Positions 1,244 through 64,000 of a stretch of 64,000 bases of DNA are shown piece after piece; the stretch's first letter is position 1; every line of letters starts with the position of its first letter. Source of the stretch: Pyrinomonadaceae bacterium (GTDB lineage: Bacteria; Acidobacteriota; Blastocatellia; Pyrinomonadales; Pyrinomonadaceae); assembly GCA_035248565.1 (NCBI GenBank), contig DATFHH010000149.1, positions 2,497 through 66,496 of the forward strand, read 5' to 3'. A program made the translations under genes and the position numbers. Under the pieces are notes generated by a model. It ran no database searches. It saw nothing but the letters and a program-made list of their open reading frames with translations, and was not told where the DNA came from.

Positions 1244-1284
1244 CCACAAAGAGGCACAAAGAGTTTCTTTTGTGCCTTTTGTGG

Positions 1285-2406
1285 CTATTGCTTCTTGGGG
1301 TAGTAGCCCTGGCGGGCGCGGACGCGCACGTCGCCGCGTGCCGGAACCGAAACCTGGATTCGCCTGAATACCCCCGGCGGCGCTTCGGCATTCGCGTAAT
1401 ACTGCAACAAGTACTGCCCGCGCAACTCCGCCGCAACCTGACGAAAGACTTTCTCGAGATCCTTATCGGAATCAGGCACGAAAGCAGTTCCCCCAGTCGT
1501 TTCGGCAATCGCTTCCATCCCGCTCTCCGCACGCATGCTGATCTGATTCAACTTCACCGACGGACCACCAGGATTGACGGAATAAAAGATCACGTCTGCC
1601 TTTTGCACTTCTTTTTGTACTTCCTGAACGGCGCGGCGGTGTTTTTCCTGCAAACCGGCGCGAGTGCTGGCGACAGTCTGCTGCCCGTTCTGCGCCGCGC
1701 GTGCTTCCGCAATCGATAAATCACGGATCTGTTCGCTGAAGTTGTCGTCGCCATCCGAGATCACCACGATAACTCGGCGGTAATTGCTCGGTGCCTTGTC
1801 TGTTAAATACTTTGCGGCTGCTGAGACGGTGTCGTAAAACGCGGTAGGCACCGGAGTCGTTGCAGCGGGAATCGTCAACATCTTGGCCGCGGATGTTTCC
1901 GCCGAAGCAAGCGGTTGGACCAACGTAGCTTTGTCGGTGATAGTAAAGATAGCAGCTCTATCGGACGGCTTCATCACTTGCTTCAAAAACGCGGCCGCAG
2001 CATCTTGTTGAAACGCGAAGAACCCTTTTTGACTGACGCTGCTCGAAACGTCAAACAACAGCGCGATCGCCAGAGGCACTTGCTCCGGATCGCCAATGCC
2101 GGAGATCTCCTGTTGCTTGCCTTCTTCCTGTAAACGAAAATCCGCAACCTGAAGTCCCTGCACGGCCTGACCCTGCTGATCGGTGACCGATACCGGCACC
2201 ATCACCAGGTTTGAAGTGAAGCGAACAACGTCGAGCTTTTCCTGCTCGGGCGGCTTTGGCGTCGGTGTTGGTTTTGCTTTCCAGGCCGGCGGAGGCGGCG
2301 GCAGATCTTTAACGGATTGCGCCTGAACAGCAGGCAGGCACAAAAAAACAGCCAGCACTCCGAAAAGGAATGCCGGCCGCAGAAATTTTTTCTCAACCCC
2401 CATCAT
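1285..2406 (-). CDS. VWA (von Willebrand factor A) domain secreted protein, acidobacterial VWFA-like
   Basis: FRLQEEGKQQEI..LAIALLFDVSSSV..VIVVISDGDDN is a MIDAS-type VWA pattern. Signal peptide MMGVEKKFLRPAFLFGVLAVFLCLPAVQAQS if the start is ATG 2406. The ORF is open to a GTG at 2454. Confidence 0.75.
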   Translation of the reverse strand: MMGVEKKFLRPAFLFGVLAVFLCLPAVQAQSVKDLPPPPPAWKAKPTPTPKPPEQEKLDVVRFTSNLVMVPVSVTDQQGQAVQGLQVADFRLQEEGKQQEISGIGDPEQVPLAIALLFDVSSSVSQKGFFAFQQDAAAAFLKQVMKPSDRAAIFTITDKATLVQPLASAETSAAKMLTIPAATTPVPTAFYDTVSAAAKYLTDKAPSNYRRVIVVISDGDDNFSEQIRDLSIAEARAAQNGQQTVASTRAGLQEKHRRAVQEVQKEVQKADVIFYSVNPGGPSVKLNQISMRAESGMEAIAETTGGTAFVPDSDKDLEKVFRQVAAELRGQYLLQYYANAEAPPGVFRRIQVSVPARGDVRVRARQGYYPKKQ

Positions 2407-2553
2407 CTGGACACCCTTCGAGTCTTGTCTCATGCCGCCAGATTTGCTGGCCACATGCTGCCTATCCTACCGCTTCTCTGACGGCATGATCCACGACTCT
2501 TTGGTGCCACGTCACATCCGCGGAGTTGCACTAATCAAATCCGCGATGCTTGA

Positions 2554-3585
2554 TTAGTTGCCCGAACCGGAACCCGAAGTGCCCGGATTCATCGTCGGCG
2601 CCGGGGATGTCAATCCCTTGTTCACAAGCAATTTGATTTCAACACGTCGATTCTGAGCACGGCCCTCACGCGATGTGTTGTCCGCCACCGGATTCATTTC
2701 ACCATAACCATACGGCGTTACGATTCGTCGCAGTGGGATATTGTGACTCTCAACCAGGTAACGAATGACGGCGTCAGCACGACGCTGGCTTAGCTGACGA
2801 TTGAGATTAACGCTTCCTCTTGAATCGGCATAACCAGAAACTTCAAGCACATAGCCCTTGGCATTCATTGCTTTGCTGGCGATGTCATCAAGTGTTGTCT
2901 TCGACTCAGGTGAAAGCACCGCACTGCCTGTCTTGAAGTTCACTGCGGCAGTATCCTGCGGTGTGTAGTCGTCCAAAGCCGAGATGCGCTCATTGGTCGC
3001 ATTAACGCCGGCGACGGCCGCATCAGCGGTTGCTTGCGCTGCTTTCGCGCCGCCACGGGCAGCGTTGGAAACAGCAGCCAACTCTTCCAACTGACCCGAA
3101 AGCCGCTGTGCATTGGCTTCAACCTGCGTCAACTTGTTTTCGGTGTCGGTTGCTCTCTCTTCGAGCGGCGCAGCTCGCGACTCAACAGCGCGTGCTGTCC
3201 GCATGTCTGTTTCGTTGAACCGGATCTTCTCGGCAAGCAGTTCGCCGGTAGAGTTCCCTCGTCCTTCAACCTCGAGGTTCAAGCCACGGAGGATGCTGGT
3301 CTGTGCATAGTTGCTGCCGCCGCGCAGGAACCCACCATGGGTCTTCACACTGGTCTTGTCGTCCAGGCGCACAACCGTATCCACGCCATTCATGTCACGG
3401 ACCGTAAATGTATCCGCATCACGTCGGGTAACCACGCCTTTGATTTTCATCTTTTGGCCGCTGGTCACGGTACGCGAACCGGCGGGGTTGGTTGTATCTT
3501 GTGCCAGGATTGGGGAGGCTGAGAAGACTAACAGGCAGGTAGTAAGCACTGCCGGGGCAAACATTTTATGTTTAGTGAATACCAT
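2554..3585 (-). CDS. OmpA family protein (coiled-coil middle, C-terminal OmpA/peptidoglycan-binding domain)
   Basis: C-terminus NFKTGSAVLSPESKTTLDDIA..GYADSRGSVNLNRQLSQRRADAVIRYL..NRRVEIKLL. AAGGAG Shine-Dalgarno before ATG 3585. Signal peptide present. Confidence 0.85.
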   Translation of the reverse strand: MVFTKHKMFAPAVLTTCLLVFSASPILAQDTTNPAGSRTVTSGQKMKIKGVVTRRDADTFTVRDMNGVDTVVRLDDKTSVKTHGGFLRGGSNYAQTSILRGLNLEVEGRGNSTGELLAEKIRFNETDMRTARAVESRAAPLEERATDTENKLTQVEANAQRLSGQLEELAAVSNAARGGAKAAQATADAAVAGVNATNERISALDDYTPQDTAAVNFKTGSAVLSPESKTTLDDIASKAMNAKGYVLEVSGYADSRGSVNLNRQLSQRRADAVIRYLVESHNIPLRRIVTPYGYGEMNPVADNTSREGRAQNRRVEIKLLVNKGLTSPAPTMNPGTSGSGSGN

Positions 3586-3850
3586 TGATTTTCTCCTTCA
3601 AACTAGTAACTGATTGACGCGCTCCTTGAGCCGCGCGTCCTCCTCAAGCTGTTCGTGGCGAGTCCTTGCTCCTCGCCTCCCGCGTATTAAATTTTGCGGA
3701 TGACATGTCTTAGAACTTCATCGGAGTTAAGTCAATAGCCTCCGCATTTCTTCATCTAATCACCACTTTATCGCAATGAATGAGTACACAGATATGCGCA
3801 GATTAACACGGATTAGAAACGATCTGTGTTAATCCGTGAAGATCTTTGGG

Positions 3851-5272
3851 CTAAAGTGAGAAATCGCCTGCCTCGAGTTGCTCTTTAATAAATGCCAGAA
3901 ATCTTTCAGCATCCGCGCCGTCAATCACGCGATGATCGAAGCTCAGCGCGAAATAGGCCATCCAGCGAATGCCGATGAAATCATCGCCGTCTGCGGTGGT
4001 CATGACCTTCGCGCGTTTCTCGATTTTTCCGATGCCCAGGATTGCCAGTTGCGGCTGGTTGATAATCGGTGTGCCGAATAGACCACCAAAGACGCCCGGA
4101 TTCGTAATGGTAAACGTTCCGCCGGTAACTTCGTCAGGTTTGAGTTGTTTGGTCCGCGCACGATCGGCGAGGTCATTTGCCGCGCGAGCGAGACCAGAAA
4201 TACTCAGATCATCAGCTCGTTTGATCACCGGGACGATCAACCCCCAGTCGAGCGCGACGGCCATGCCGAGATTGATGTCCTGCTTGTAAATGATCTGCTC
4301 ACCATTAACCTGCGCATTAAAAATCGGAAACTTCCGCAATGCTTTGTTCACAGCTTCGAAAATGAATGGCATGAACGTTAGCTTGGTGCCGGTGCGTTCG
4401 TAGAACGCATCGCGATGCTGGTCTCTGAGTCGCGCAATGCGCGTCATGTCAATCTCGTAAACGGTGGTGACATGCGCGGAGGTACGCCGAGACAGGACCA
4501 TGTGCTCGGCGATCTTCTTCCGCATCACGCTCATCTGTTCCACTCGATCGCCAACCTGTGGCTTCGGTGGCGACGGAGGAGGAATTTCATGGACCTGCGG
4601 TGCCGCAGACGGAGCGGGAGTTTCCGCTTTGCGTTGCGGCGGCGCGGCAGTAACGCCCGATTCGATGAAGCTGAGTATGTCGTTCTTGGTTACTCGACCA
4701 CTTAGACCAGTGCCTTCGAGTTGTGAAATGTCGACGCCGTGCTCCTGCGCGATCTTCCGAACTAACGGGCTTGACTTGGTCCGTCGAAGCTCTTCCGCAG
4801 TCGCAGTCGCTCCATCTTTCTTGGCCGGCGGCTCAGGTGTTCGAGCCGCGGTTGGTTTCGTTTCAACCGGTTCTGGCAGAGGAGGCGCAGCGGGTGTGGG
4901 TGGTTTTGGCGCTGGAGCTGGTGGTGGCGTGGTTGCTTGTGGCGCGGGCGGCGTTGGGGCTGGCGGCGTTGGCGCTGGCGCGGCAGGCTTGGCTTCAACA
5001 GGCTGGGTCTTCGCTGGTGCAGCCGCCGTCGACTGGTCTCCATCAAGCACAGCCACGACTGTATTTACTTCAACTGTCTCGCCTTCATTGAACCTGATCT
5101 CGGTCAATGTTCCCGCAGCGGGCGACGGAATCTCCGCGTCGACTTTGTCGGTCGAGATCTCAAACAGCGGCTCATCACGCTCGACACGCTCGCCAACTTT
5201 CTTCAACCATTTTGTAATCGTGCCCTCCGCAATGGACTCACCCATCTGAGGCATCACCACTTCAGTGCTCAT
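3851..5272 (-). CDS. 2-oxoacid dehydrogenase E2 (dihydrolipoamide acyltransferase), single lipoyl domain
   Basis: Lipoyl domain (EISTDKVDAEIPSP), long Pro/Ala linker, subunit-binding domain (SPLVRKIAQEHGVD), catalytic DHRVIDGA motif. Confidence 0.9.
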   Translation of the reverse strand: MSTEVVMPQMGESIAEGTITKWLKKVGERVERDEPLFEISTDKVDAEIPSPAAGTLTEIRFNEGETVEVNTVVAVLDGDQSTAAAPAKTQPVEAKPAAPAPTPPAPTPPAPQATTPPPAPAPKPPTPAAPPLPEPVETKPTAARTPEPPAKKDGATATAEELRRTKSSPLVRKIAQEHGVDISQLEGTGLSGRVTKNDILSFIESGVTAAPPQRKAETPAPSAAPQVHEIPPPSPPKPQVGDRVEQMSVMRKKIAEHMVLSRRTSAHVTTVYEIDMTRIARLRDQHRDAFYERTGTKLTFMPFIFEAVNKALRKFPIFNAQVNGEQIIYKQDINLGMAVALDWGLIVPVIKRADDLSISGLARAANDLADRARTKQLKPDEVTGGTFTITNPGVFGGLFGTPIINQPQLAILGIGKIEKRAKVMTTADGDDFIGIRWMAYFALSFDHRVIDGADAERFLAFIKEQLEAGDFSL

Positions 5273-5314
5273 CTCTTCTCCAGGAATCAGTGTTCATCTG
5301 CGCAAATCCGCGGC

Positions 5315-6343
5315 TCAATAAGCCGCCAGCTTGCGAGCCGCATCGACCACGCCCTTCGTTTGCGGCAAATAGTAATCTTCCAGCGGCGGTGAATATGGGA
5401 CCGGCGTATCGATCGAGCCAATGCGTATCACCGGCGCGTCGAGCCATTCAAAACACTCTTCCGCGAGCATCGCCGCTATCTCACCGCCAATGCCGCCAGT
5501 GCGCGAAGCTTCGTGCAGCACGATCGCTTTGCTCGTCTTCTTAACGCTCGCCAGTATCGCCGGTTTGTCGAGTGGCGCGAGCGTTCGCAAGTCCACGACT
5601 TCAACGTCCAAACCTTCTTTCTCGAGCTCTTCGGCAGCATCGAGCGCCGTCAACACCATCGCGCCAAAGGTGATGATGGTCAAATCGCGTCCCGCACGGG
5701 CCACGCGTGCTTTGCCGATCTCGACGATGTAATCATCCGAAGGTAATTCCTCGCGCAGTCGCGGCAGTCGATACAGCTTTTTGTGTTCGAAAAAGAGAAC
5801 CGGATCGGGATCGCGAATCGCGGCTTTGATCAAGCCTTTGGCGTCGTATGCCGTCGCAGGTTCGACAATCTTGAGTCCCGCCGTGTTCAGGAAAAACGCT
5901 TCCGCGTTCAGCGAATGAAACGGACCGGCTCGTACACCTGATCCACATGGGCCACGAAAGACGGCCGGAATTGCCGCGCCCCAACGATAACGACACTTCG
6001 CCGCGTAATTTGTAAGGAGATCAAAACCAGCAGAAATAAAATCGATAAACTGAAATTCGGCGACTGGCCGCATACCCATCAACGCCGCACCACACGCTGC
6101 GCCAACGATTGCGCCTTCGGAGATCGGCGTGTCGATTACGCGTTCTTTGCCAAATTCGTCGAACAAGCCGTCTGTGACTTTGAATGCACCACCGTAAACG
6201 CCCACGTCTTCGCCGATCACAAACACGGTCGGGTCGCGTTCCATCTCTTCCCAGATGCCCTGGCGAATTGCTTCAACCATCGTGGCCTGACCGCCACGTT
6301 CTGGGCGTGCGGATTTGTGTTCTTTTTTGACGGCAGTGGACAT
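5315..6343 (-). CDS. 2-oxoacid dehydrogenase E1 component beta subunit
   Basis: Transketolase-like pyrimidine-binding and C-terminal domains (VIGEDVGVYGGAFKVT..DTPISEGAIVG). ATG at 6343 preferred over the TTG at 6361. Confidence 0.9.
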   Translation of the reverse strand: MSTAVKKEHKSARPERGGQATMVEAIRQGIWEEMERDPTVFVIGEDVGVYGGAFKVTDGLFDEFGKERVIDTPISEGAIVGAACGAALMGMRPVAEFQFIDFISAGFDLLTNYAAKCRYRWGAAIPAVFRGPCGSGVRAGPFHSLNAEAFFLNTAGLKIVEPATAYDAKGLIKAAIRDPDPVLFFEHKKLYRLPRLREELPSDDYIVEIGKARVARAGRDLTIITFGAMVLTALDAAEELEKEGLDVEVVDLRTLAPLDKPAILASVKKTSKAIVLHEASRTGGIGGEIAAMLAEECFEWLDAPVIRIGSIDTPVPYSPPLEDYYLPQTKGVVDAARKLAAY

Positions 6344-6353
6344 CGTTAAATAC

Positions 6354-6770
6354 TCAGGCAACTCGCTTAACTGTTCTGATATCGTCAGGATTCACCAGCA
6401 GCCTTTCTCCTTTGGGATCTATGAACGCATCCAGTCCTTCGAGTGGAAATGCACCTAGCAAGACTTCTGACGTTTGTGGCAACACAACAGCTCTTACAGT
6501 AGTGGCACGATTCTCGAAACGCACCTCCACCGGACCGACGATGTCCACATCCAACCACGTTTCGTCGGCCATTTGGACGGTCCCCCGCCCAAGCACCCGC
6601 AAGTTCAGTCTTTTTTGGACGTCTTTGTTAATAACGAGATCCCACGCGCCACTGTCCACGAGCGCCCTGCAGGTAACTCTCCTTATTTCATCTTCTGGCA
6701 AAAATCCGCGCTGGTTGAGCGCTATATCATCTTCGCTTGTCAGCTCAATGTCCGCATACACATATCCCAT
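6354..6770 (-). CDS. retropepsin-like (clan AA) aspartic protease family protein
   Basis: MGYVYADIEL..CRALVDSGAWDLVI..LLGAFPLEGLDAFIDP. D-S-G-A motif in a ~138-aa protein. Strong GGAGGAAAAGGA SD before ATG 6770. The ORF is also open to ATG 6842. Confidence 0.62.
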   Translation of the reverse strand: MGYVYADIELTSEDDIALNQRGFLPEDEIRRVTCRALVDSGAWDLVINKDVQKRLNLRVLGRGTVQMADETWLDVDIVGPVEVRFENRATTVRAVVLPQTSEVLLGAFPLEGLDAFIDPKGERLLVNPDDIRTVKRVA

Positions 6771-6842
6771 TCCTTTTCCTCCGGTAAGTGAGGTACCAGT
6801 GGTACGTCGTCGATAACTATGGTTAGCTGGTTTGACTGTCAT

Positions 6843-7967
6843 TTATCCCTCCAGTACTTTCGGTCTAAACGCCGGCGGCACGATGTTGTTATCAAACACT
6901 CCATACGCCGCCTGCTCGCCTTCGGGCATCGGTGAAGACTCTGCCCAGGCGCAGTCTTCGTCAATCTCGCGGAGAACGCCCGCCACGATCTCCTCGAGCT
7001 TCTCTTTCGTCGCCAGGTTACATTCAAGCAAGTAACGCTCGTAACGATCGACGGGATCGTTATTCTTCTCCCACCACTCGATCTCACCCGGCGCAACGTA
7101 ACGCTGATCGTCGTGCTCCGCGTGTCCTTTACGACGATAGGTCTTCGCCTCAATCAATACCGCGCCACCGCCGCGTCGTGCATATTCGGCTGCCTGCTTT
7201 GTCACTTCATAACAAGCGACTACATCATTGCCGTCGACGACGTGCGCAGGTATGCCATAACCCGCTGCTTTCTCGGCGAGATCTCGCACGGCGGTTTGTA
7301 AATTCGTCGGCGTTGAATACGCGTAGTGGTTGTACTCGGCAATAACAATCAAAGGAAGTCGCTGCACGGCGGCGAAGTTGAGTCCTTCGTGAAAGGCGCC
7401 CGTGCTCATGCCGCCGTCGCCGATGTAAGCAACGGCAACAAACTTCTTCCTAAGCATGCGACCACCGAGAAGAATTCCACTCATCACGGGAATCATATCG
7501 CCCAGGTGAGAGATTGGACCAATGAATCCCTTCTGTACATCGCCGAAATGAATGTTGAGATCTTTTCCGCCGGAAGGTCCCCAGGCCTTGGCCATGTACT
7601 GCGCAAAGATCTCGCGCGGCCGAACTCCTTTTATGAGTACTGCGCCCAGATCTCTAATCAATGGAGTGACGAAATCCTGCGGCTGGAGTGCATAGGCACT
7701 GCCGACAGCCGTCGCCTCCTGGCCCAAGGAACGAAATACGCCGCCGACGACTTTGGTCTGGCGATAAAGATTCACGAGTCGTTCTTCGACTAATCTAGTG
7801 AGTTTTAGATAGCGATACAGTTCGAGATGCTGCTCTGGTTTGAGTGTGGTCTCGGTCGTACAGCTTAGCGGTTTGCCGTCAACTGCTTTGCGCGGCGCGT
7901 ATTTAGTGCTCACGCGCATCTGGAAACGCGGACGCGGTCGCCGGCGACGTTTGTTGGTTTTTTCCAT
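6843..7967 (-). CDS. 2-oxoacid dehydrogenase E1 component alpha subunit (TPP-dependent)
   Basis: TPP-binding GDGGMSTGAFHEGLNFAAV..IAEYNHYA. ATG 7967 (MEKTNKRRR) preferred, because the upstream ATG at 7985 lies inside repeat A1. Confidence 0.9.
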   Translation of the reverse strand: MEKTNKRRRRPRPRFQMRVSTKYAPRKAVDGKPLSCTTETTLKPEQHLELYRYLKLTRLVEERLVNLYRQTKVVGGVFRSLGQEATAVGSAYALQPQDFVTPLIRDLGAVLIKGVRPREIFAQYMAKAWGPSGGKDLNIHFGDVQKGFIGPISHLGDMIPVMSGILLGGRMLRKKFVAVAYIGDGGMSTGAFHEGLNFAAVQRLPLIVIAEYNHYAYSTPTNLQTAVRDLAEKAAGYGIPAHVVDGNDVVACYEVTKQAAEYARRGGGAVLIEAKTYRRKGHAEHDDQRYVAPGEIEWWEKNNDPVDRYERYLLECNLATKEKLEEIVAGVLREIDEDCAWAESSPMPEGEQAAYGVFDNNIVPPAFRPKVLEG

Positions 7968-7977
7968 AACATGAAGC

Positions 7978-8031
7978 CCATCCACAGATTACGCAGATTT
8001 CTGTTAAGTAATCTGCGTAATCTGTGGATGG
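7978..8031. repeat. Family A palindromic element, copy A1 (complete)
   Basis: CCATCCACAGATTACGCAGATT (7978-7999), 10-nt loop, then AATCTGCGTAATCTGTGGATGG (8010-8031). Perfect 22-bp inverted repeat between the lpdA stop and the E1alpha start. Confidence 0.9.
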
Positions 8032-8033
8032 CT

Positions 8034-9500
8034 TTAGATATGCACAGCGAGATCGTGAACGCCTTCGGCAGCTTCCATCACCGCCTCAGAAACAGTCGGA
8101 TGCGCGTGCATCGTTCGACCGAGTTCTTCAGCAGTTGATTCAAGCTGCATGGCAACGCAAGCTTCGGCGATCAACTCAGTGGCATGCGGGCCAATTATGT
8201 GCACACCCAAAATCTCGTCGTATTTCTTCTCGCTGACAACCTTGACGAAGCCTTCTTCCTCACCAAGTATGCGCGCTTTGCCTGACGCGGAAAACGGAAA
8301 TCTTCCAACCTTAACGTCGTAACCTTGTTCTTTCGCCTTCGCCTCAGTCAGTCCGACAGAGCCAATCTCCGGATCGCAGTAAGTGCAGTTTGGCACTAAA
8401 CGCAGATTGATCGGACGCACGTCCTTACGTCCGGCAAGATGCTCGACCGCGACTATCCCTTCCTTCGACGCCAGGTGGGCCAACAAAGGTGTCGGCACAA
8501 CGTCGCCGATAGCGTACACGCCTTTCTCGGCAGTCTGCTGATATTCGTCGACCTGAATAAAACCCTTTTCGACCTTGATCTTCGTGCCTTCGAGTCCGAG
8601 TCCCTGCGTGTAAGGCATTCGTCCGACAGCAACCAGCAACATCTCAGCTTCGAGACTCACCGGCTCGCCCTTCGATGTCTTGCCCGTAACACGCACGCCT
8701 GTTTCAGTCTTTTCCAGCTTCTGGAGTGTCGTGTCTACCTGCGTCTTGATTCCGCGTTTGCGGAAACTGCGTTCGAGCTCCTTTGACACCTCTTCATCTT
8801 CGAGCGGTACAATCTGTGGCAATAACTCGACAATTGTCGTTTCGGCGCCGAAACGTGAGTAGACCGAAGCAAACTCGACGCCGACTGCGCCACAACCCAT
8901 CACGATCAACGACTTCGGCACCTGTTGTAGATCGAGAATGTGATCGCTGTTTACAACCTTGTTGCCGTCAGTCTCAAATCCGGGAATAGGCCGCACGACT
9001 GAACCTGTAGCGATAATGATGTTCTTGGTTTGAAGTGTCTGCTTTTTTCCTTCCGCGTCGATGACTTCGACTTTACCCGGCAGCGCGAGCTTGCCCGTGC
9101 CTTTGAAGACTGTGACTTTGTTCTTCTTCATCAAATACTCGATGCCTTTCGAGTTCTTGAGCACGACTTTGTCTTTTCTCTTTTGCACGTCGGCGAAAGC
9201 TAATTGAATGGCTGAGGCTTGCACGCCAAAATCCGCTGCATGCTGCATCTGTTCGTAGATGTGGGCCGACATCAACATCTGCTTGGTAGGAATGCAACCG
9301 CGCAGTGTGCACGTGCCGCCGAGCCGGTTATCTTTCTCGATAATTGCAGTTTTAAGACCCAACTGACCGGCGCGAATCGCCGCCACATAACCGCCCGGTC
9401 CACTGCCAATAATCGTTACGTCAAACTGTTCGTTCGCCAATTTTGTAGGTATCTCCTCATGGGAGCAGTAATGAAATAAAAGACCGGGCATTATAATCAT
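8034..9500 (-). CDS. lpdA: dihydrolipoyl dehydrogenase (E3)
   Basis: FDVTIIGSGPGGYVAAIRAGQLG, redox-active GGTCTLRGCIPTK, C-terminal HAHPTVSE. True start may be downstream of ATG 9500 (a TTG before ANEQFDV is possible). Confidence 0.9.
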   Translation of the reverse strand: MIIMPGLLFHYCSHEEIPTKLANEQFDVTIIGSGPGGYVAAIRAGQLGLKTAIIEKDNRLGGTCTLRGCIPTKQMLMSAHIYEQMQHAADFGVQASAIQLAFADVQKRKDKVVLKNSKGIEYLMKKNKVTVFKGTGKLALPGKVEVIDAEGKKQTLQTKNIIIATGSVVRPIPGFETDGNKVVNSDHILDLQQVPKSLIVMGCGAVGVEFASVYSRFGAETTIVELLPQIVPLEDEEVSKELERSFRKRGIKTQVDTTLQKLEKTETGVRVTGKTSKGEPVSLEAEMLLVAVGRMPYTQGLGLEGTKIKVEKGFIQVDEYQQTAEKGVYAIGDVVPTPLLAHLASKEGIVAVEHLAGRKDVRPINLRLVPNCTYCDPEIGSVGLTEAKAKEQGYDVKVGRFPFSASGKARILGEEEGFVKVVSEKKYDEILGVHIIGPHATELIAEACVAMQLESTAEELGRTMHAHPTVSEAVMEAAEGVHDLAVHI

Positions 9501-9531
9501 TCAGCAAACTACAACACAAAAGGACCAGATC

Positions 9532-9900
9532 ATGAAGCATTCCGAAGGTTTCTTAAAACTAGTAGACGACGCAAAGAGCCGGATTCGAGAGGTGAGTGCG
9601 GACGAAACTCAGCGGCGAATGAGCGATGACAGCAACGTAAAACTGATCGACGTTCGCGAAGACAACGAGTGGAACGAAGCACATGCGAAGGGCGCAATGC
9701 ACCTTGGCAAGGGCGTCATTGAACGCGATGTTGAGAACACAATTCCCGACAAGAACGCGGAACTGATTCTCTACTGTGGCGGTGGTTATCGCTCGGCGTT
9801 AGCGGCAGACGCGCTACAAAAAATTGGCTATACAAACGTGTTTTCGATGGCTGGTGGCTGGAGGGCGTGGAAAGAAACAGGTGGTGACATCGAGAAATAA
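9532..9900 (+). CDS. rhodanese-like domain protein
   Basis: 122 aa with active-site loop YCGGGYRS and flanking rhodanese pattern (IDVREDNEW..GHA). Confidence 0.8.
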   Translation: MKHSEGFLKLVDDAKSRIREVSADETQRRMSDDSNVKLIDVREDNEWNEAHAKGAMHLGKGVIERDVENTIPDKNAELILYCGGGYRSALAADALQKIGYTNVFSMAGGWRAWKETGGDIEK

Positions 9901-9902
9901 AA

Positions 9903-9945
9903 CATCCACAGATTACACCGAAAAATCTGGCGTAATCTGTGGATG
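9903..9945. repeat. Family A element, copy A2 (internally deleted)
   Basis: CATCCACAGATTACACCGAAAAATCTGGCGTAATCTGTGGATG. Outer 14-bp arms are intact and the inner words are degraded. Sits between convergent stops 9900 and 9964. Confidence 0.8.
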
Positions 9946-9963
9946 CTCTAGCTTCCTGATTAC

Positions 9964-12900
9964 CTAGAACTCGAATCGAGCCGCAAACTGCACCTGGCGC
10001 TCGCGGAACAACGTGCTGTCAGCTCCAGTGACATTGCGGAATGGATTGGTTCCCGTGCCGTTAAAGGTCAACGTGGAACCGGACAAGTTATAGAGAGTGC
10101 CGTTAACAATGGTGACTTGAGTGCGGTTGAAAACGTTGAAGCCTTCTGCCAAGACCTCAAGTTTCATCCGTTCATTGAGGCTGAACCGGCGTGAAAGCCG
10201 CGCGTCAAGGTACCAGATGTTGGGTTGCTTGAAGAAGTTTCGCGGCACCAGCGCAAAGCGGTTCGCACCACCGGAACCATTCGCACCTCCGCCCGGAGTC
10301 TGATTGGAGGCGAAACCGAACGACTGCGGATTGATACTGTTGGCAATGTTTCCTGTAAATCGCTGGCCGGAGAACGCATTGAGAATCGGTGCGATGGTCC
10401 AACCGTTGAAAATGTGCTTTGCCGGTCCATCCGCGAACGGATTCGGATTGTAGACCACACTCGCCACAAGTTTCTGCCTGCGATCAAACGCCGAGAGTCC
10501 GCTCTCGCCCGACTGGTTAAAAGCATTGAAGGGTACATTGTTCGCAGTAAACGTTGTCGAGGTTTGACCGTTATCAGAAGCACGAGACAGCGTGTAGTTC
10601 GTCTGGAACTGCAGTCCCTTGGTCAACCGGCGATTCCCTTGCAATACCAACGCATGATACTTCGAATAGACGTCACTGCGGATTTCCGTGATCTGTTGGA
10701 ACGCGGTGTTCGGACGCGGTCCAACAAACAGCGGTGTTAGGTAAGTCTGCCCGGCGAATGGTCCACCAACAATGCTCAATGCAACCGTGCGTCTGGGCAG
10801 CGGCAGATTGGTGTCGACAAAGTTTGGCAACGAATTTCCGAAACTGCCGAGGTATGACGCAGAGACAACCGTGTTTCTCGCAATTTCACGTTCGATGATG
10901 AAATCCCACTGATGAATCTGCGGGAGCTGGAAATTGCTTGCAAAGTACTGCACTGCACCAACCGGCGGATTAGAAGCGGGCAGCAGGTTTGGATAAATCG
11001 GCAATAACGTGCAGTTATCGGCGCTGATGCTACTGCCCGTGCAGGCGGCCGGTAAGTTGCTGTTGCTCGTTGTGAACTGGCGCTGACCTTGATCGGTACC
11101 TACACCTGTATTAACAAGTGCGTTGTAAACCGTGGAGTTGATCACGCGCCCGTAATACAATCCCCAGCCACCGCGAATGCTTGTTTTGCCATCGCCGTTC
11201 AAATCGTAAGCAAAGCCGACGCGCGGTCCAAAGTTATTGCGATCGTCGACCTTGTTGTTTGTCTGCGGCAGCGCCGGATTAACGTTCACAGGATCGGGAT
11301 TGAGCTGGTACTCGTAACGCAGACCAAGATTCAAGGTGAATCTCGGACTGACGCGCCAGTCGTCCTGCACGAAGTAGTTAAAGTCGGTGGTCTTCATGTT
11401 GAGACCGAGAACACCAAATCCCTGGTTGAAGTTGCCGGCATAACACTTACCGACACGTCGCGTTGAGCTGACGCACAACCCGAGATTGCCGTTCGGCGTG
11501 GCCGAGAGCGCACGAATTGCGCCGTTGGTTTGGAAGTTGACGTAGTCGACGATGAAATCGGCGATTCCGGTAGTGGCTCCGGTGTAGTTGAACTCGCCAC
11601 CGGAGAAGCGCAGGTTATTGATGATGTCTTTGACAAAGTTGATGTCACCGCCAAACTTGACCGTGTGATTGCCGGAGGTAAGCGTCACTGTATCCGCAAA
11701 CTGCCAACGCCGTTCATCCGGAAACGCAGCACGCTCGAGGAACTCGGGCATACCAAACGAGAAGGTCGTCGCACCGACGAGAATTGTTTGCGGCGATCTG
11801 CCGCCAATGGCGTTCGTTGGCTCACCCGTGATCGGAGGCTGGCTAAATTGAAACTCGTTGTCGCGTCCCCACTGGAAGCGAAATTCGTTCAGCAGGTTGG
11901 GCGTTAGAGTAGAGGCGAGCTTCGTGTTTAGCGAATCGATCTGAACAAAGTCATCACCAAAATTATCGACCGCTCGTGTATTGGTCGCTTGCGTCTGAAT
12001 ACCTGCCGGCGAGGCCCAGCGCAGACGGTTGTAGCTCACTGTCAAAGTGTTTCTGTCATTCAGAACCCAATCCACTTTTGGTAAGAAGAGCTTTTGGTCG
12101 CCGGTCCTTGGGACCGCACCCGAAAGGCTGGCCAGGAAGCCAAGCGTGCTATCGATCTGTGCATTGGTCAGGCCGCGTGCAATCAGCGCGGTCCGATTGC
12201 TGGAGCTTAGGTTTAGGAAACCATTCTGACCAAACACCGCCAAACCGGGGAAGTTACGTTTCTGTTGATCGTAGCTGAAGAAAAAGAAAGCTTTGTCTTT
12301 TACGATTGGTCCACCGATCGTGCCGCCAAATTGGTGGCGCACGTCTGTCGGTTTGAAGCCTACCGAAGTAAAGATGCCATTGATTAATTCCTGACGGACT
12401 GCCAGTGGATTACGAGCGCCCCACTTGTTGTTGCGTTGATAGTAGAACGCACCACCGTGAAACTCGTTCGTACCACTCTTCGTGATTGCGTTGACCACGC
12501 CGCCCGCCGAACGGCCGTATTCTGCCGAGTAGCTGGAAGTGTTGACCTGAAACTCGCGAATAGCAGCCTGGCTGATGGAGTAGCTGATACGCGTTCGGCC
12601 ACGCTCTTCAGCGAAGAACGCCTGGTTGTTGTCGCCGCCGTCGATTGTGTTGTTGTTCAGCAGGCCGGAAATACCGCGGAAGCTGATCAAGCCAAATGTT
12701 CCATCAGGCACCGCACCTGGCGTCAGCAAGGCGAAGTTTGACCAGCGACGGCCGTTGATCGGCAGCTCGTTGATCGAAGTCTGATTGATGTTGGTTGAAA
12801 AGTCCTGCTGCGTGGTGTTGATGACAGGCGCCTCAGCAGTGACATCCACCTGGCCCGTTACGGGGCCAACCGCTAACGCGACTTCAAGACTTGTTTCGCG

Positions 12901-56393: not shown

Positions 56394-57302
56394 TTATCGA
56401 CCCCAGCGCAGTTTGTCGCGCAACACGTCGAAATAGTTTCGATTCATCGGTTGAATGAGATTGAAAGTCGTGCGGCTTTTGCGAATCGTCACTTTATCTT
56501 CCGGTTCGAGGGGAAATCCAACTTGTCCGTCGAGCGTCAATGCAACCTCTTCATGCTCAGTCTTCAGCAACAACTCGATCTCGGCATTGTCCGGCACGAC
56601 GATGGGACGGTTGGAAAGCGTAAACGGACAAATCGGAGTTATGACCACTGCATTCATTGAGGGAAAGATTACTGGTCCACCGGCGGAGAGGTTGTAAGCG
56701 GTCGAGCCTGTGGGCGTTGAAACGATCAAGCCGTCAGCGCGGAACGAATTAACAAAGTGGCGGTTAAGATAAGCTTCGATCTCGATGATGCGGGCCAGCG
56801 CTGATTTGTTGATTACAACATCGTTGAGAACACGATTACTTGTAATGACGATGTCGCCGCGACGAAGCTCCACCGACAGCATGACGCGTTTATCGAGTTG
56901 GTAATTGCCCGCGAGGATCGACTCGAGCGCGCTGTAAAGTTCTTCAATGCGAAACTCGGCGAGATAGCCGAGGCCGCCGTAGTTGACTCCGAGTACCGGC
57001 ACTTCCTGATCGCCGATCGTCCGCGCGGTGGCGATCATCGTTCCGTCGCCGCCGAGCACGAGGATCAAATCGACCTTGTCGGCGAGTTTGTCCTCTTGAA
57101 CTTCATCGACCGGACAGCCGGTCTGGTGCTCGATGCGTTCGCGCTCGATTTCCGGACCACCGACGAGCTGAATGTTTCGCTCGGCAAGCCACACGACCAG
57201 CTCGCAGATCGTCTTCAGGGCGTCAGGTTGGTGCGGTTTAAGGACGATGCCTATCCGCGTGATTGGCGACATTTGCGTTGCAGGATACGCATCCGTGTTC
57301 AT
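56394..57302 (-). CDS. nadK: NAD+ kinase
   Basis: LVLGGDGTMI motif, NxGxLGFL-like NYGGLGYL, C-terminal beta-sandwich domain. ATGA overlap with the tlyA stop. Confidence 0.9.
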   Translation of the reverse strand: MNTDAYPATQMSPITRIGIVLKPHQPDALKTICELVVWLAERNIQLVGGPEIERERIEHQTGCPVDEVQEDKLADKVDLILVLGGDGTMIATARTIGDQEVPVLGVNYGGLGYLAEFRIEELYSALESILAGNYQLDKRVMLSVELRRGDIVITSNRVLNDVVINKSALARIIEIEAYLNRHFVNSFRADGLIVSTPTGSTAYNLSAGGPVIFPSMNAVVITPICPFTLSNRPIVVPDNAEIELLLKTEHEEVALTLDGQVGFPLEPEDKVTIRKSRTTFNLIQPMNRNYFDVLRDKLRWGR

Positions 57303-57322
57303 CCGCGCAAATCCGCGGCTAA
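57289..57322. repeat. Family C element, copy C13 (three words)
   Basis: GCATCCGTGTTCATCCGCGCAAATCCGCGGCTAA. Spans the tlyA stop / nadK start overlap. Confidence 0.88.
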
Positions 57323-59105: not shown

Positions 59106-59232
59106 CTTCAATTGCTACTCGGAAATCGTTGCAATCACGAGGCCACGCCATTTTTGGTACGGTTTGAGTGGGGAGAAGGACGAAAATCTTCCGATTTGGT
59201 GCACTAAAACAACGCGCTGGTTGTTGTGATTT

Positions 59233-59247
59233 TTAGCCGCGGCTTAA
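59233..59247. repeat. Family C core (near-palindromic single unit), copy C14
   Basis: TTAGCCGCGGCTTAA. Encodes ..SRG* of dxs on the minus strand. Confidence 0.6.
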
Positions 59248-61155
59248 AAACCCAGTTTTGGCCCGGCGCTCATCCAGCACTTCGATGCTCTCTCGGACGC
59301 GGTTGTAAATTCCGTCAGCATCGAGGCCGTACTTGGCAAGCAGTAACTTGGCGTCGCCATGCGTGATCAACCGATCCGGGACTCCCATTCGCACTACGCG
59401 AACTTTGTCTTGCAGACCATTCTCTTCGAGCAGCTCGACTATCGCTGAGCCGAAACCACCCGCAAGATATGCTTCTTCAACGGTAACGATCAGTCGCTTC
59501 GTTCGGGCCAGCGCTAGCAGCAATGGCGCGTCGAGCGGCTTCGCAAACCTGGCGTTGACGACAGTGGTTTCGATCCGGTCCTTCGCGAGATGCTCGGCAG
59601 CAGCAAGCGACGGATGGGCCATCGCACCGTAAGCGACAATCGCGACCTCGCCGCCATCGCGCAATATCTCGCCTTTTCCGATCTCGAGCAGTTCAGGTTC
59701 GCGATCGATCGGAACGCCGACGCCATTGCCACGCGGATAACGCATCGCGGCTGGTCCGGTGTGCTCGATCATCGTGAACAACATGTCGCGCATCTCGCCT
59801 TCATCTTTCGGCGCCATCAAGATGATGTTTGGAACGGCACGCAGGTACGCGATATCGAGTAAACCGTGATGAGTTTGTCCGTCGCCGCCGGCGATGCCGC
59901 CGCGGTCGAGACAGAACTTAACATTCAGATCCTGAATGCAGACGTCGTGAATGACTTGATCGAAAGCGCGCTGGAGAAAAGTTGAATAGATCGCGCAGAC
60001 TGGGATCAGTCCCTCGCACGACATACCGGCAGCGAAAGTGACGCAATGTTGCTCGGCGATGCCCACGTCAAACGCGCGATCGGGAAACTTCTCGAGCGCG
60101 GTGCAAATGCCCGTGCCGTCGGGCATGGCAGCAGTCAAAGCGACGACCTTCGGGTTCTTTTCCATCAACTGGCTAAGCGTGTCGCCAAATACAGAGGTAT
60201 AAGTCGGAGCTTTGGCCGAACTTTTGTGTGGTTTGCCAGTGGCGAGATCGAATGGACCGGTTGCATGCCAGCGATAGTAATCAGGCTCAATTTGCGGAAA
60301 ACCTTTTCCTTTCGTGGTCAGTGCATGAACGATGACTGGTCCATCCTTGATCTGTTTCGCTTCTTCGAGCGCGGCAACGAGTGCGCGCGGATTATGTCCG
60401 TCAACATAGCCGATGTACTTGAACCCGAGCTCGTGCACCAGCGCGCCCGGCAATACCGCGGCCGCGATGACGTCCTTCATCGTCTTGGCCGCGTGATGCA
60501 GACGCTCGCCGACTGAAGGAATCGCTAACAACTTCTCTTCCACTTCGTCTTTGAAACGATGATAGCCGTGTGCGCCGCGAATGCGATTCAGGTAACCCGT
60601 CAACGCTCCAACGGCGGGCGCGATCGACATCTGATTGTCGTTGAGTACGACGATGAGACGGCTCTTCAAGTGACCGGCCTGGTTAATCGCTTCCATCGCC
60701 ATGCCGCCTGCGAGTGAAGCGTCGCCGATCAGCGCGACGACGTGATGATCCTCGCCTTTGCGGTCGCGTGCGATGGCCATTCCGAGCGCGGCGGAAAGCG
60801 ACGTCGATGCGTGACCTGCGCCAAACGTGTCGTACTCCGATTCGTCGCGCCGCAGAAAACCGCTAATGCCGCCGTACTGTTTGATGGTCGGGAGTAACTC
60901 TCGACGACCAGTCAGGATCTTGTGTGCATAGGCTTGATGTCCGACGTCCCACACCAGACGGTCGCGGGGCGTGTCGAAGGCGTAATGCAGCGCGACGGCT
61001 AGTTCGACGGCGCCGAGTGACGCGCCGGTGTGACCGCCTACACGAGACATGGTCTCGAGGATGTAGGTGCGAATCTCGTCGGAGACTGTTCGTAACTGAT
61101 CGATTGGTAAAGCCCGCAGGTCGGCTGGCGAGTTAATACTCTCAAGAAGCGTCAT
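59233..61155 (-). CDS. dxs: 1-deoxy-D-xylulose-5-phosphate synthase
   Basis: GHTGASLG, GDASLAGGMAMEA (TPP GDG..N), transketolase-like domains. ATG 61155 (MTLLESINSPADL) preferred over the TTG at 61176. Confidence 0.92.
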   Translation of the reverse strand: MTLLESINSPADLRALPIDQLRTVSDEIRTYILETMSRVGGHTGASLGAVELAVALHYAFDTPRDRLVWDVGHQAYAHKILTGRRELLPTIKQYGGISGFLRRDESEYDTFGAGHASTSLSAALGMAIARDRKGEDHHVVALIGDASLAGGMAMEAINQAGHLKSRLIVVLNDNQMSIAPAVGALTGYLNRIRGAHGYHRFKDEVEEKLLAIPSVGERLHHAAKTMKDVIAAAVLPGALVHELGFKYIGYVDGHNPRALVAALEEAKQIKDGPVIVHALTTKGKGFPQIEPDYYRWHATGPFDLATGKPHKSSAKAPTYTSVFGDTLSQLMEKNPKVVALTAAMPDGTGICTALEKFPDRAFDVGIAEQHCVTFAAGMSCEGLIPVCAIYSTFLQRAFDQVIHDVCIQDLNVKFCLDRGGIAGGDGQTHHGLLDIAYLRAVPNIILMAPKDEGEMRDMLFTMIEHTGPAAMRYPRGNGVGVPIDREPELLEIGKGEILRDGGEVAIVAYGAMAHPSLAAAEHLAKDRIETTVVNARFAKPLDAPLLLALARTKRLIVTVEEAYLAGGFGSAIVELLEENGLQDKVRVVRMGVPDRLITHGDAKLLLAKYGLDADGIYNRVRESIEVLDERRAKTGFLSRG

Positions 61156-61300: not shown

Positions 61301-61391
61301 GGAGATGTGGCCGAGTGGCTGAAGGCGGCGGTTTGCTAAACCGTTAAGGGTCAAAAGCCCTTCACAGGTTCGAATCCTGTCATCTCCGCCA
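61301..61391 (+). tRNA. tRNA-Ser (anticodon GCU), class II with long variable arm, CCA encoded
   Basis: Acceptor GGAGATG/CATCTCC. Anticodon stem GCGGT/ACCGT with loop TTGCTAA. Variable arm AAGGG..CCCTT. T-arm ACAGG-TTCGAAT-CCTGT. G discriminator plus CCA. Confidence 0.9.
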
Positions 61392-61396
61392 GAAAC

Positions 61397-61495
61397 CCAC
61401 CAAAAAAAAGCACAAAAAGCTCGAATGATTTTCAGGTGGATCTTTTTCGCCTTTTGTGCTTTTTTGTGGCTTGAAGTTTGTGCCTCTTTGTGGCC
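61397..61495. repeat. Family D composite, copy D5 (inverted repeat plus extra half copy)
   Basis: CCACCAAAAAAAAGCACAAAAAGC (61397-61420), then GCCTTTTGTGCTTTTTTGTGGC (61449-61470), plus GTTTGTGCCTCTTTGTGGCC (61476-61495). Ends 1 nt before the gltX ATG. Confidence 0.8.
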
Positions 61496-61496
61496 C

Positions 61497-62987: not shown

Positions 62988-62990
62988 AAA

Positions 62991-63012
62991 CCATCCAGAG
63001 ATTACGCAGATT
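62991..63012. repeat. Family A half element, copy A9
   Basis: CCATCCAGAGATTACGCAGATT (one substitution in the outer word). No inverted partner. Starts 3 nt after the gltX stop. Confidence 0.7.
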
Positions 63013-63024
63013 AGGGGGCTGTTA

Positions 63025-63654
63025 ATGATGAAGGTGATTATTTTTTTACTAATGTGTGGCGTTGTCTTGGCCCAGAATTCAAATTCATCAAGCACACCGC
63101 CAAGCCGCCAACGAACCACAAATACAAACCGCGCGACGCCGACTCCAACGCCCACTCCACAGCCCACACCGAAGAGGCCCGCGGCTGCACCGCAAGAAGT
63201 ACCTGGCTCCGACGCCGTGCTCGCCGCGTTCAATAGTCTGCTCGATGGCATCCGGCACGCGAACGTCAACGAAGTAATGTCTGCTTACTGGAATTCTCCA
63301 CGTCTGAGTCTTTTCAACTACAACGGCAGTGTGACGAAAGGTTGGGAGCAGGTGCGCAACAACCGCCAGAGCTCGTATCCCGAGATCAAAGACGTGAAGC
63401 TCGACGTGCGCGATGTTTCAGTCACCATGCTCGGACGAGACGGCGCTGTCGTTACTTGCCAGTGGACACAGTCACAAAACTACAAAGGCACGCCTGAAAC
63501 GGTGACCGGCCGCATGACATTGGTTTTCAAACGATTCGGCACAGCCTGGAAAGCTATTCATTTGCACTCTTCGCCCGATAATCCGAATCCGGCAGTCATT
63601 CCGCCGTCGGAACAGCGACCATCTCCGTCTCCGTCGCCTTCGCCCACACCTTGA
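63025..63654 (+). CDS. secreted SnoaL-like/DUF4440-like (NTF2 fold) protein with Pro/Thr-rich linker
   Basis: Signal peptide MMKVIIFLLMCGVVLAQ. ..AYWNSPRLSLFNYNGSVTKGWEQV..VTCQWTQ..GRMTLVFKRFGTAWKAIHLHSS resembles NTF2-like DUF4440 proteins (from memory). Confidence 0.6.
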   Translation: MMKVIIFLLMCGVVLAQNSNSSSTPPSRQRTTNTNRATPTPTPTPQPTPKRPAAAPQEVPGSDAVLAAFNSLLDGIRHANVNEVMSAYWNSPRLSLFNYNGSVTKGWEQVRNNRQSSYPEIKDVKLDVRDVSVTMLGRDGAVVTCQWTQSQNYKGTPETVTGRMTLVFKRFGTAWKAIHLHSSPDNPNPAVIPPSEQRPSPSPSPSPTP

Positions 63655-64000
63655 TAGGTGAGCACCTCCTTGGAGTGCGCCGACTTGTCGGCGCTTTGGC
63701 CAAAGCGGTGCCAAGGCACCGCACTCCAAAGAGGAGCCTTGATCGTCGACGCGCCCGCGCCGGCGAGAATGATCAAGAACGGAAAGATCTCGACCGCATA
63801 ACGCGGTTCGGGATTTTCGAGCGTCGCGAAGAAACCGAGCCGCAAGAAGATCAGCAGCACCGCGAGCAGCAACCATCTTCTTGCGTTGGGATCTCTTGAA
63901 CGCCAGAGCAACCAACCACCAAGCACCCCCAACAAAGAGTAGAGCCCAGTCAACCCGGCAAACAGCGGCAGCCAATACTGCTGATGAATGTCATAGTCGA
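63558..64000 (-). CDS. C-terminal part of a polytopic membrane protein (5' end outside window); annotated stop probably an artefact of read-through into repeat B4
   Basis: Frame is open from the window edge (..DYDIHQQYWLPLFAGLTGLYSLLGVLGGWLLW..EPRYAVEIFPFLIILAGAGAS). After ~63736 the frame runs through repeat B4 and overlaps the convergent gene by ~100 nt before the stop at 63558. Confidence 0.5.
   Translation of the reverse strand, partial: DYDIHQQYWLPLFAGLTGLYSLLGVLGGWLLWRSRDPNARRWLLLAVLLIFLRLGFFATLENPEPRYAVEIFPFLIILAGAGASTIKAPLWSAVPWHRFGQSADKSAHSKEVLTYQGVGEGDGDGDGRCSDGGMTAGFGLSGEECK
63665..63734. repeat. Family B element, copy B4 (no spacer, diverged arm interiors)
   Basis: CCTCCTTGGAGTGCGCCGACTTGTCGGCGCTTTGG (63665-63699) directly followed by CCAAAGCGGTGCCAAGGCACCGCACTCCAAAGAGG (63700-63734). 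Confidence 0.88.

Follow-up and report, generated by a model that had tools for sequence, protein, structure and literature searches.

Hairpin-forming word repeats at the gene junctions of a compact Pyrinomonadaceae genome: probable non-autonomous selfish DNA of the REP/MITE kind

We analyzed the short repeats that sit between genes in a 64,000-nt stretch of DNA (hereafter the window) from a soil Pyrinomonadaceae bacterium of the phylum Acidobacteriota (assembly GCA_035248565.1, contig DATFHH010000149.1). The repeats, designated A to D, are real and far above chance. Our comparisons firmly support their rapid gain, loss, replacement and decay by deletion, with tolerance only at gene ends in a very compact genome. 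[quoted passage not shown] That they are miniatures of IVS-type elements, with a GxxExxY nuclease in a role like that of the REP-associated tyrosine transposases (RAYTs), is plausible but unproven.

After correcting gene starts from orthologue alignments, we catalogued 36 elements, which occupy 35 of the 50 gene junctions and the window end; the ∼36 junction copies of a preliminary description, made from the letters alone, were thereby borne out. Family A has 13 half-sites at up to three mismatches, compared to 0.00 in shuffled sequence; the corresponding numbers are 9 and 0.29 for the B word, 7 and 0.04 for the D word, and 32 and 8.7 (largest shuffle 16) for YATCCGCG, the C word. The G+C content of the window is 52–57%; its intergenic DNA amounts to 2,826 nt (4.4%, coding density ∼95.6%), and the elements, 1,693 nt together, make up more than half of the non-coding DNA. 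Their summed density is one per 1.8 kb. All five convergent junctions are occupied, as are 29 of the 40 co-directional and one of the five divergent ones; the occupied divergent gap, at 48966–49034, is a correction to the earlier account. Single arms lie in both orientations relative to transcription (11 versus 6), a weak bias. The element flanks have no T runs, so the GC-rich hairpin plus U/T tract of an intrinsic terminator is not seen; hairpin plus T-run sites are not enriched either (33 versus 25.7 ± 5.1 in positions 1–20000), in agreement with the earlier view that these are not ordinary terminators.

The 50 predicted proteins of the window all have housekeeping or envelope functions, and their genes include those of the pyruvate dehydrogenase complex, purF/purM/purN, tyrS, proC, gltX, dxs and a polysaccharide cluster. 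Ten of them match, in every residue, database proteins (HJP948xx) annotated to a Pyrinomonadaceae MAG. No transposase, HUH (including Y1_Tnp) or PDDEXK_3 domain was detected among these 50 proteins, as expected from the earlier reading that no transposase or RAYT gene is present. Rfam searches of the window, with gathering and permissive thresholds, gave only tRNA-Ser and chance microRNA-like hairpin matches on the palindromes. No rRNA was found there by Rfam, and the elements lie at protein-gene junctions, not in 23S helix 25 or 45. One ENA contig, 100% identical to the window over 15,272 nt, reaches 6 kb past the window start and carries further repeat copies, and relatives are rich in further families; the repeats are no local oddity of the window.

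In A and C, one grammar is followed: an outer end (...AGCC), then two to four tandem CRCRGAT words plus a 2–3-nt spacer. The words are CACAGATTA and CGCAGATTA in A, CGCGGATAA and CGCGGATGA in C; hybrid arms occur at 47596–47628 and 31310–31341. Judged by their words, A and C are one continuum, not separate families. D contains CACAAAG words plus a spacer, with the same 9–10-nt period. B is a ∼100-nt hairpin, each arm of which has its own GCGGCG-N6-CGCCGC hairpin, similar to REP doublets forming hairpins (REPINs). Full copies of A, B and D are predicted to fold into hairpins that are very stable, at −22 to −103 kcal/mol (z −5 to −18); single C arms form only a 5-bp CCGCG/CGCGG mini-hairpin. The arms of full palindromes are 20–55 nt in length and 79–96% complementary, which are terminal inverted repeats (TIRs) as in MITEs, and A, B and D are short, high-copy, extragenic inverted pairs at junctions, as REPs and REPINs are. 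The outer ends are TTAG, TAAG, TGAG or ATAG followed by CC, and GTAG once (47596), although the adjoining stop codon confounds the reading of this tag; the outer two bases of the A arm vary (CC, TC, GT, AC, CA, TT). Full palindromes are mostly bounded by TA, in the forms TA/GCC...GGC/TA, TA/GACAGG...CCTGTC/TA and ATA/GGTCC...GGACC/TAT.

The outer ends are located 0–3 nt from stop codons (TAA/CCACAAAG, TGA/GCCGCGGAT, TGA/AACATCCACAG). Several open reading frames (ORFs) enter the element and take their stop there (...TTA GCC GCG GAT GAC CGC GGA TGA), so that the annotated C-termini ...AADDRG, ...LAADLRG and ...IRVIRG derive from repeats. At three places at least, the last word (...GGATG) is the downstream start codon: purM, the glycosyltransferase gene at 36668 and the flippase gene at 42516. 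Because ORFs remain open through the repeats, many first-in-frame starts are false, for example those of purM, thiolase, ADH and gltX. The preliminary description held that gene models do not explain the boundary precision. This was overstated, since the extremely compact genome, the elements that abut or supply stops, and deletion-driven compaction account for it.

To follow the junctions among relatives, we compared 80 orthologous loci from a metagenome scan with the metallo-β-lactamase (MBL)-fold protein (22825–23964; 76–89% amino acid identity), in which synteny is conserved; individual loci are referred to by L numbers. The MBL-to-purM junction is empty in ∼11 of the 80 loci, with GTGA, TAATG or TAGATG overlaps, and the remaining loci hold at least nine different families. 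The fillings are C-type arms or palindromes, GCCACAGATTACACGG palindromes, ACAGGATTTACAAGATT elements, GGTCCTAT, CATTTGCCATTT or CAAAGAACAAAG words, a GC-rich hairpin, GTAG-type REPs, D and B. L122 and L124 are 97% identical in nucleotides, with different families at this junction. The same turnover was observed at the tyrS-to-RDD, purF-to-MBL and purN/proC junctions, and neighbouring slots within a lineage tend to hold particular families. L128, the closest relative of the window, differs at four slots or more. Both presence/absence and family replacement were thus seen between close relatives. With such turnover, which is typical of selfish repeats, a conserved regulatory site is excluded. 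The occupancy described as far beyond that of REPs or bacterial interspersed mosaic elements (BIMEs) was likewise put too strongly; such turnover is selfish REP/MITE-type behaviour, a known kind.

The comparison also revealed decay. Where the window has half arms, at 18178 and 26440, the alignment with L128 shows full palindromes there, and L131 and L165, which are 98.9% identical, are set apart by a deletion of 47 nt between GAT repeats. It follows that single arms are products of decay. Deletion remnants are present at the junction in L192 and L195. The scheme of four separate families was too rigid: A and C are continuous, half copies arose from full palindromes by deletion, and at least six other word families fill the same slots in relatives. 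At the purF-to-MBL junction, the empty site of L128 reads ...TGAG/CGAGG and the window reads ...TGAG, the element, then TGAG/GCGGG, a possible 4-nt duplication. In L141, this point is occupied by a D element whose loop is unrelated, so either insertion recurred here or loss was precise. TAA...TAA was seen around nested elements.

Two gene differences between the window and its relatives also involve repeats. Most relatives (L120–L199) have an extra gene for a secreted protein of ∼180–210 amino acids between purF and the MBL gene (9372–10001 in L133, for example); it matches no Pfam family, and the window, L128 and L143 are without it. Right after its signal peptide, in-frame palindromes of differing families are found, and the insert is missing in other relatives. 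An alanine-dehydrogenase-like gene is located between the response-regulator and aldehyde-dehydrogenase genes in relatives (L128 2067–3303 and L141 1812–3092, among others); the window is without it, and the two neighbouring ORF ends overlap there in an A arm.

Among the 36 elements, six are full A palindromes, to which, as to all palindromic elements below, no strand is assigned. They are located at 7974–8035 (between the Lpd and E1-alpha genes; −40.8 kcal/mol, z −12), 9903–9949 (between convergent genes; −26 kcal/mol), 13326–13380 (−32.8 kcal/mol), 42511–42559 (with the asnB2 stop inside and the next start codon in right arm TGTGGATG; −26 kcal/mol), 48966–49034 (−33.1 kcal/mol) and 52346–52403 (−43.6 kcal/mol, z −12.8). 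The palindrome at 48966 fills the 71-nt gap between divergent start codons; these belong to UDP-glucose dehydrogenase and amino-acid permease genes (48964–49034), and the arms end 4 nt from each start codon. A-type single arms were found at 30773–30796 (minus strand), common to the 3′ ends of two convergent ORFs; at 33283–33305 (minus), where the arm is the whole gap, TGA/AACATCCACAGATTACACAGATT/ATG; and at 62988–63012 (plus), directly after the gltX stop. The two A/C hybrid arms are GCCGCAGATGAAACACGGATTGAGCGGATAAC on the coding strand (31310–31341, minus) and GTAGCCACAGATGACGCGGATGAAGACAGATTT (47596–47628, plus). A degenerate A/C palindrome follows the E2-gene stop (3787–3848; −18.8 kcal/mol, z −3.9), and degenerate A/C words match at 54884–54923 (plus).

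The D palindrome at 1244–1284 exactly fills the gap between convergent stops (TAA/.../CTA; −22.5 kcal/mol, z −5.3). That at 23991–24079 has a 35-nt loop and direct TGAG repeats on its flanks (−45.1 kcal/mol); its slot is empty in L128 and L143. The third, with an extra arm, lies between tRNA-Ser and gltX (61400–61496; −29.6 kcal/mol). In this region (61301–61496), the tRNA is tRNA-Ser(GCT); the D element starts 9 nt later and extends to the gltX start codon. Of the two D-type single arms, 18178–18207 (plus) is, by alignment, a remnant of a full palindrome kept in L128 and L143, and 26440–26456 (plus) fills a 17-nt gap that holds the full palindrome in L128. The long B hairpins are located at 27416–27514 (a small GCGGCG..CGCCGC hairpin in each arm; −93.3 kcal/mol, z −15), 46379–46492 (overlapping the end of an epimerase ORF; −102.8 kcal/mol, z −18) and 54001–54098 (−86.9 kcal/mol). 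In the short B variant (63662–63737), both small arm hairpins are unlike the other copies, yet still self-complementary.

The C-type arms lie mostly on the minus strand: 5291–5314 (single arm, coding strand TGA/GCCGCGGATTTGCGCAGATGA), 19034–19066 (the tyrS ORF ends within it, ...AGC CGC GGA TGA), 21182–21214 (an arm of three words where proC and purN converge and through which the purN ORF reads; L128 has a full palindrome), 22806–22827 (TAA/GCCGCGGATAACACGGATG, with a last word that supplies the start of purM; L128 has an empty slot here), 35460–35495 (three words; the upstream ORF ends within the arm and the next ATG is 3 nt beyond), 36663–36690 (word CGTGGATG supplies the probable start codon of the downstream glycosyltransferase), 44483–44515 and 57292–57322 (a tlyA-like ORF ends within it as ...LAADLRG). 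A degenerate arm on the same strand, with two ATCCGCG words, lies directly after the OmpA-gene stop (2511–2553). On the plus strand, there are the single arm TTAGCCGCGGATAAACGCGGATAG with its 5-bp CCGCG/CGCGG mini-hairpin (16950–16979), an arm of opposite orientation in which an ORF ends as ...IRVIRG at GGCTAA (37466–37495), and degenerate words at a methyltransferase/PMT_2 junction (38795–38826). Two elements are without strand, one of three words plus one inverted word between convergent genes (50541–50592), and the minimal palindrome TTTTTAGCCGCGGCTTAAAAA, consisting of C termini only, at the dxs stop (59227–59252). Apart from the repeats, a gene for a retropepsin-like aspartyl protease (PF13650/PF13975; 6354–6842, minus strand) is wedged between the pyruvate dehydrogenase E1-alpha and E1-beta genes, with flanking gaps of 0 and 10 nt; the arrangement is the same in the identical ENA contig.

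The A arm is not confined to this lineage. The exact 19-mer ATCTGYGTAATCTGYGGAT occurs in at least 119 stretches of GTDB species-representative genomes, and the matches listed fall into more than 15 phylum-level groups. These matches include Acidobacteriota, Planctomycetota, Verrucomicrobiota, Lentisphaerota-like taxa, Alpha-, Beta-, Gamma- and Deltaproteobacteria, Nitrospirota, Chloroflexota, Armatimonadota, Gemmatimonadota, Bacteroidota, Spirochaetota, WOR-3, NC10 and Desantisbacteria. Among the carriers are closed chromosomes and cultured Oligosphaera, Asticcacaulis and a Gemmataceae isolate, so that cultured strains (Oligosphaera ethanolica DSM 24202, Asticcacaulis biprosthecium C19) exist for experiments. 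In all A-arm loci, the GGAT end is located 0–25 nt from a neighbouring gene boundary, and a third tandem word is usually present upstream of the 19-mer motif. Arm pairs are mostly 0–130 nt apart and often bound MITE-like units of 100–210 nt, the interiors of which are unrelated or have other word palindromes nested in the loop. In the fetched loci, most occurrences of B, C and D were in Acidobacteriota. A search of 72,556 plasmids gave no match to the A palindrome. The 19-mer also occurs in 78 viral-contig stretches. In L272, a phage-like contig of IMG/VR, A palindromes lie between three consecutive genes (3400–4360), and TAA/TGA stops overlap ATCCGCAG; host-type repeats have therefore colonised phage operons.

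We scanned all fetched loci (2.2 Mb) for ORFs enclosed by the arms. The scan identified genes or remnants of PF13366 (GxxExxY) and one gene of PF05635 (23S rRNA-IVS protein, in L055), each between word-type inverted repeats. Inverted repeats enclosing an optional small ORF, the layout of IVS-type elements, are therefore present in related loci, and the window copies are ORF-less. Homologues of a GxxExxY pseudogene in L088 are located downstream of cca in at least nine contigs of the Pyrinomonadaceae lineage (70–92% identity); each is flanked left and right by an A arm, and the TAA of the ORF is within the right arm. A C-terminal remnant of the same clade lies within A arms in a deltaproteobacterial metagenome-assembled genome (MAG). 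In a second clade, perfect 22–26-nt CTCACGCAAAGGCGCAAAGACGCTAA arms made of CGCAAAG words flank the gene in Desulfobacteraceae-type and Prevotellaceae contigs, and in one Prevotellaceae member arms of these words are 57 nt long. Equally strong flanking inverted repeats were found around 4 of 400 random small ORFs (1%), versus 5 of 5 independent GxxExxY loci. Proteins with the same arm type share 47–79% identity, versus 32–41% between arm types; the arm family tracks the clade. The function of PF13366 is listed as unknown, with multiple inter-phylum transfers (PMC3424549).

A mechanism can be proposed on this basis. The window copies would be ORF-less miniatures of IVS-type elements with an arm-ORF-arm layout, mobilised in trans, possibly by a resident GxxExxY nuclease by analogy with RAYTs and REPINs. 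The comparisons show that full palindromes decay to single arms and scars via internal deletion, and that copies survive only where tolerated, namely after or across stops, where genes converge, only rarely in a promoter gap, and in the reading frame of one secreted-protein linker. Given the stability of the stems and the IVS precedent, the long perfect stems in transcripts may be RNase III substrates, the cutting of which would divide or stabilise mRNA segments; the stems may also protect 3′ ends. We regard one specific form of this proposal as tentative, and as more doubtful than not: that the A and CGCAAAG palindromes are non-autonomous partners of the resident GxxExxY (PF13366, PD-(D/E)XK) nuclease gene between the same arms, a REPIN/RAYT-like system on a different nuclease fold, related to ORF-bearing 23S IVSs and horizontally spread through more than 15 phylum-level groups and phages. 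The long vertical residence of the cca-linked gene between its own repeats plausibly mirrors RAYT biology.

Several observations weigh against our reading of the repeats as selfish IVS-related DNA. The flanks did not establish a target-site duplication: TA and TNA are each self-complementary, and stop codons complicate the reading. Nor was transposition caught between near-identical genomes, the 80 loci giving nine clean indels, of which the best is a deletion. No mobilising gene lies within the window or the 6 kb past its start, and no ORF link was found for families B, C and D. The evidence for a GxxExxY link comes from two protein clades and a small number of independent loci, and the cca-linked gene has long been inherited vertically, so that its arms could equally stem from a single insertion long ago. 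Finally, the depletion in divergent gaps and the occupancy of all convergent junctions are also compatible with a benefit to the host, for example in termination or in stabilising mRNA.

RAYT and DDE enzymes are still candidates for the mobilising role, most of all for B and C. In the first case, the repeats would be classical REPs/REPINs, single-stranded hairpins of which are dispersed by a RAYT (a Y1 HUH transposase) encoded once elsewhere in the genome. The architecture of B is REPIN-like, two inverted units each with its own 6–7-bp GC hairpin, and in the B copy at 63662 both small hairpins have diverged, each still being self-complementary. C monomers have their 5-bp CCGCG/CGCGG hairpin after TTAG, TAAG, TGAG or once GTAG, resembling the GTAG tag (PMC3733652), and bona fide GTAG REPs (GTAGGGGCGGCC...) occupy the same slot in L143, L194 and L198. 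RAYTs are single-copy, therefore their absence from 70 kb says little. However, Y1_Tnp was not found in the 50 window proteins; a RAYT seed (E. coli YafM-like) had no match in the window ORFs or beside word-type arms in the 2.2 Mb; A and D monomers lack a hairpin of their own; and the ORFs found between word arms are PF13366 and PF05635, not HUH. We consider a RAYT origin possible, with the odds against it. A possible RAYT-like fragment counts for this origin: a degraded ORF in a Chthoniobacterales MAG (L070, 1385–1919) gave a weak match, to the same seed only, which Pfam did not confirm; it is flanked by inverted GTAG-type REPs (GTAGCGGCGG..., GTAGCGGCGGTCTC...) and may be a classical REPtron.

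In the second case, the repeats would be ordinary MITEs, internally deleted copies of a DDE insertion sequence (IS630/Tc1-like with TA, or IS5/IS1031-like with TNA), with the words as subterminal repeats bound by the transposase. TA on both sides of most full palindromes, the direct TGAG repeats of the purF-to-MBL element, the TAA...TAA around nested copies, and the 100–210-nt units bound by A arms in other phyla, a typical MITE size, are all in line with this idea. However, TA and TNA are their own reverse complements and may be just part of the inverted repeat, the A-arm flanks in other phyla have no consistent duplication, and the plasmids searched gave no match. No transposase was found between any arm pair in the 2.2 Mb, nor any autonomous insertion sequence with the same termini; pairs 250–4000 nt apart enclose ordinary or phage genes. 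An ordinary MITE origin is thus unlikely.

It is somewhat less likely still that the repeats are host signals under selection at gene ends (terminators without T-tracts, RNA-processing or stabilising hairpins, or translational coupling), with their similarity maintained by gene conversion rather than mobility. The distribution over convergent, co-directional and divergent junctions agrees with such signals, as do the very stable stems, the elements that begin 0–3 nt past stops or supply starts, the refilling of the same slots in different lineages, and the A palindromes that separate consecutive genes in the phage-like contig. However, slots are empty in close relatives, where the GTGA, TAATG or TAGATG overlaps come without compensating structure; single arms lie in both orientations; many copies are non-folding half arms or scars; some are in-frame within a coding region; families differ between 97%-identical loci; and there is neither a T-tract nor terminator enrichment.

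Sites of a universal factor (DnaA, DNA-uptake sequences, RNase E AG/AUU), identical across phyla by convergence, are very improbable: the outer 9-mer TTATCCACA is a perfect DnaA box that ends some A arms (49024–49032, for example, and many loci with TGTGGATAA), the 9–10-nt period would put the words on one helix face, and the 19-nt motif is common to more than 15 phylum-level groups among the matches listed, but the commonest variant, ATCCGCA, is a mismatched DnaA box, the outer two bases vary, many unrelated word families share the slots, thousands of DnaA boxes per genome are implausible, and there is no strand bias as in uptake motifs or those of the FtsK-orienting (KOPS) type. A DNA uptake sequence is one fixed, species-specific 9–12-mer found genome-wide, whereas here many families have variable words common to several phyla. 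DnaA-box, 16S rRNA 3′-end, consensus-pause and RNase E readings, weighed on the sequence alone, were dropped, as words and outer bases vary and unrelated families share slots.

Selfish palindromic DNA remains our preferred reading, and it can be set beside known systems. Like the REP/BIME/REPIN systems with RAYTs (E. coli, Pseudomonas, Stenotrophomonas SMAG), the repeats are short, high-copy extragenic palindromes, often in inverted pairs, that cluster just past stops, are rare between divergent genes, have lineage-specific sequences and turn over quickly. The element density here is at the top of the reported REP range, and a GxxExxY gene between A arms resembles a RAYT gene between its own repeats. 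Different from those systems, no RAYT was found in the window or the fetched loci; arms consist of tandem 9–10-nt words and not of one imperfect stem; the tag, as far as it can be read beside the stop codons, is TTAG, TAAG or TGAG plus CC where REPs have a constant GTAG; and the A arm is nearly identical in many phyla and phages, whereas REPs are usually species-specific.

Correia elements of Neisseria (CREE, Correia repeat enclosed elements; NEMIS, Neisseria miniature insertion sequences) are small TIR elements with TA ends that lie near genes, are co-transcribed and form hairpins cut by RNase III; no transposase is known for them. The repeats here are similarly small, TA-ended, near genes and hairpin-folding. 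However, Correia elements are 100–155 bp in length, occur in Neisseria only, have an integration host factor (IHF) site and promoter-like termini, and lack a tandem-word grammar. Rickettsia palindromic elements and intragenic REP or enterobacterial repetitive intergenic consensus (ERIC) copies are alike in that in-frame palindromes are tolerated in coding sequence, here in the purF/MBL secreted-protein gene of relatives; they differ in sequences and hosts, and intragenic copies are the exception here.

The 23S IVSs with an S23p/PF05635 ORF (Leptospira, Coxiella, Salmonella) share with the repeats an inverted-repeat stem around an optional small ORF. The Coxiella IVS is a selfish element excised by RNase III, which contains the S23p ORF and, in the 5′ region upstream of it, a variable number of tandem GACAGAT heptamers (PMC4990558). 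GACAGAT is close to the CACAGAT and CGCAGAT words here, giving the same kind of word arm. 23S IVSs are regarded as selfish and horizontally transferred, and the L055 gene between word arms is a parallel to them. Unlike 23S IVSs, the elements here lie between or at the ends of protein genes, not in rRNA helices 25 or 45; most are ORF-less, and the A-arm ORF is a PD-(D/E)XK GxxExxY protein, not S23p.

Repeats of a REP/MITE-like kind are already known. In the searchable literature, the word grammar, the occurrence of the A arm across phyla and the connection of GxxExxY with IVSs seem to be undescribed: no paper on the exact word sequences was found, and the REP, MITE and GxxExxY literature is without these families. 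Small palindromic repeats affect operon expression, mislead gene callers and mark genome dynamics. The window is an extreme case, in which repeats make up over half of the non-coding DNA, provide stops and starts, and occupy slots that are refilled by different families. If the GxxExxY link is true, it would define a new class of mobilising enzyme for REP-like DNA and tie that DNA to the 23S rRNA intervening sequences, which have long lacked an explanation; a very large protein family now listed as unknown would gain a function, and the origin of the IVS stems would be explained.

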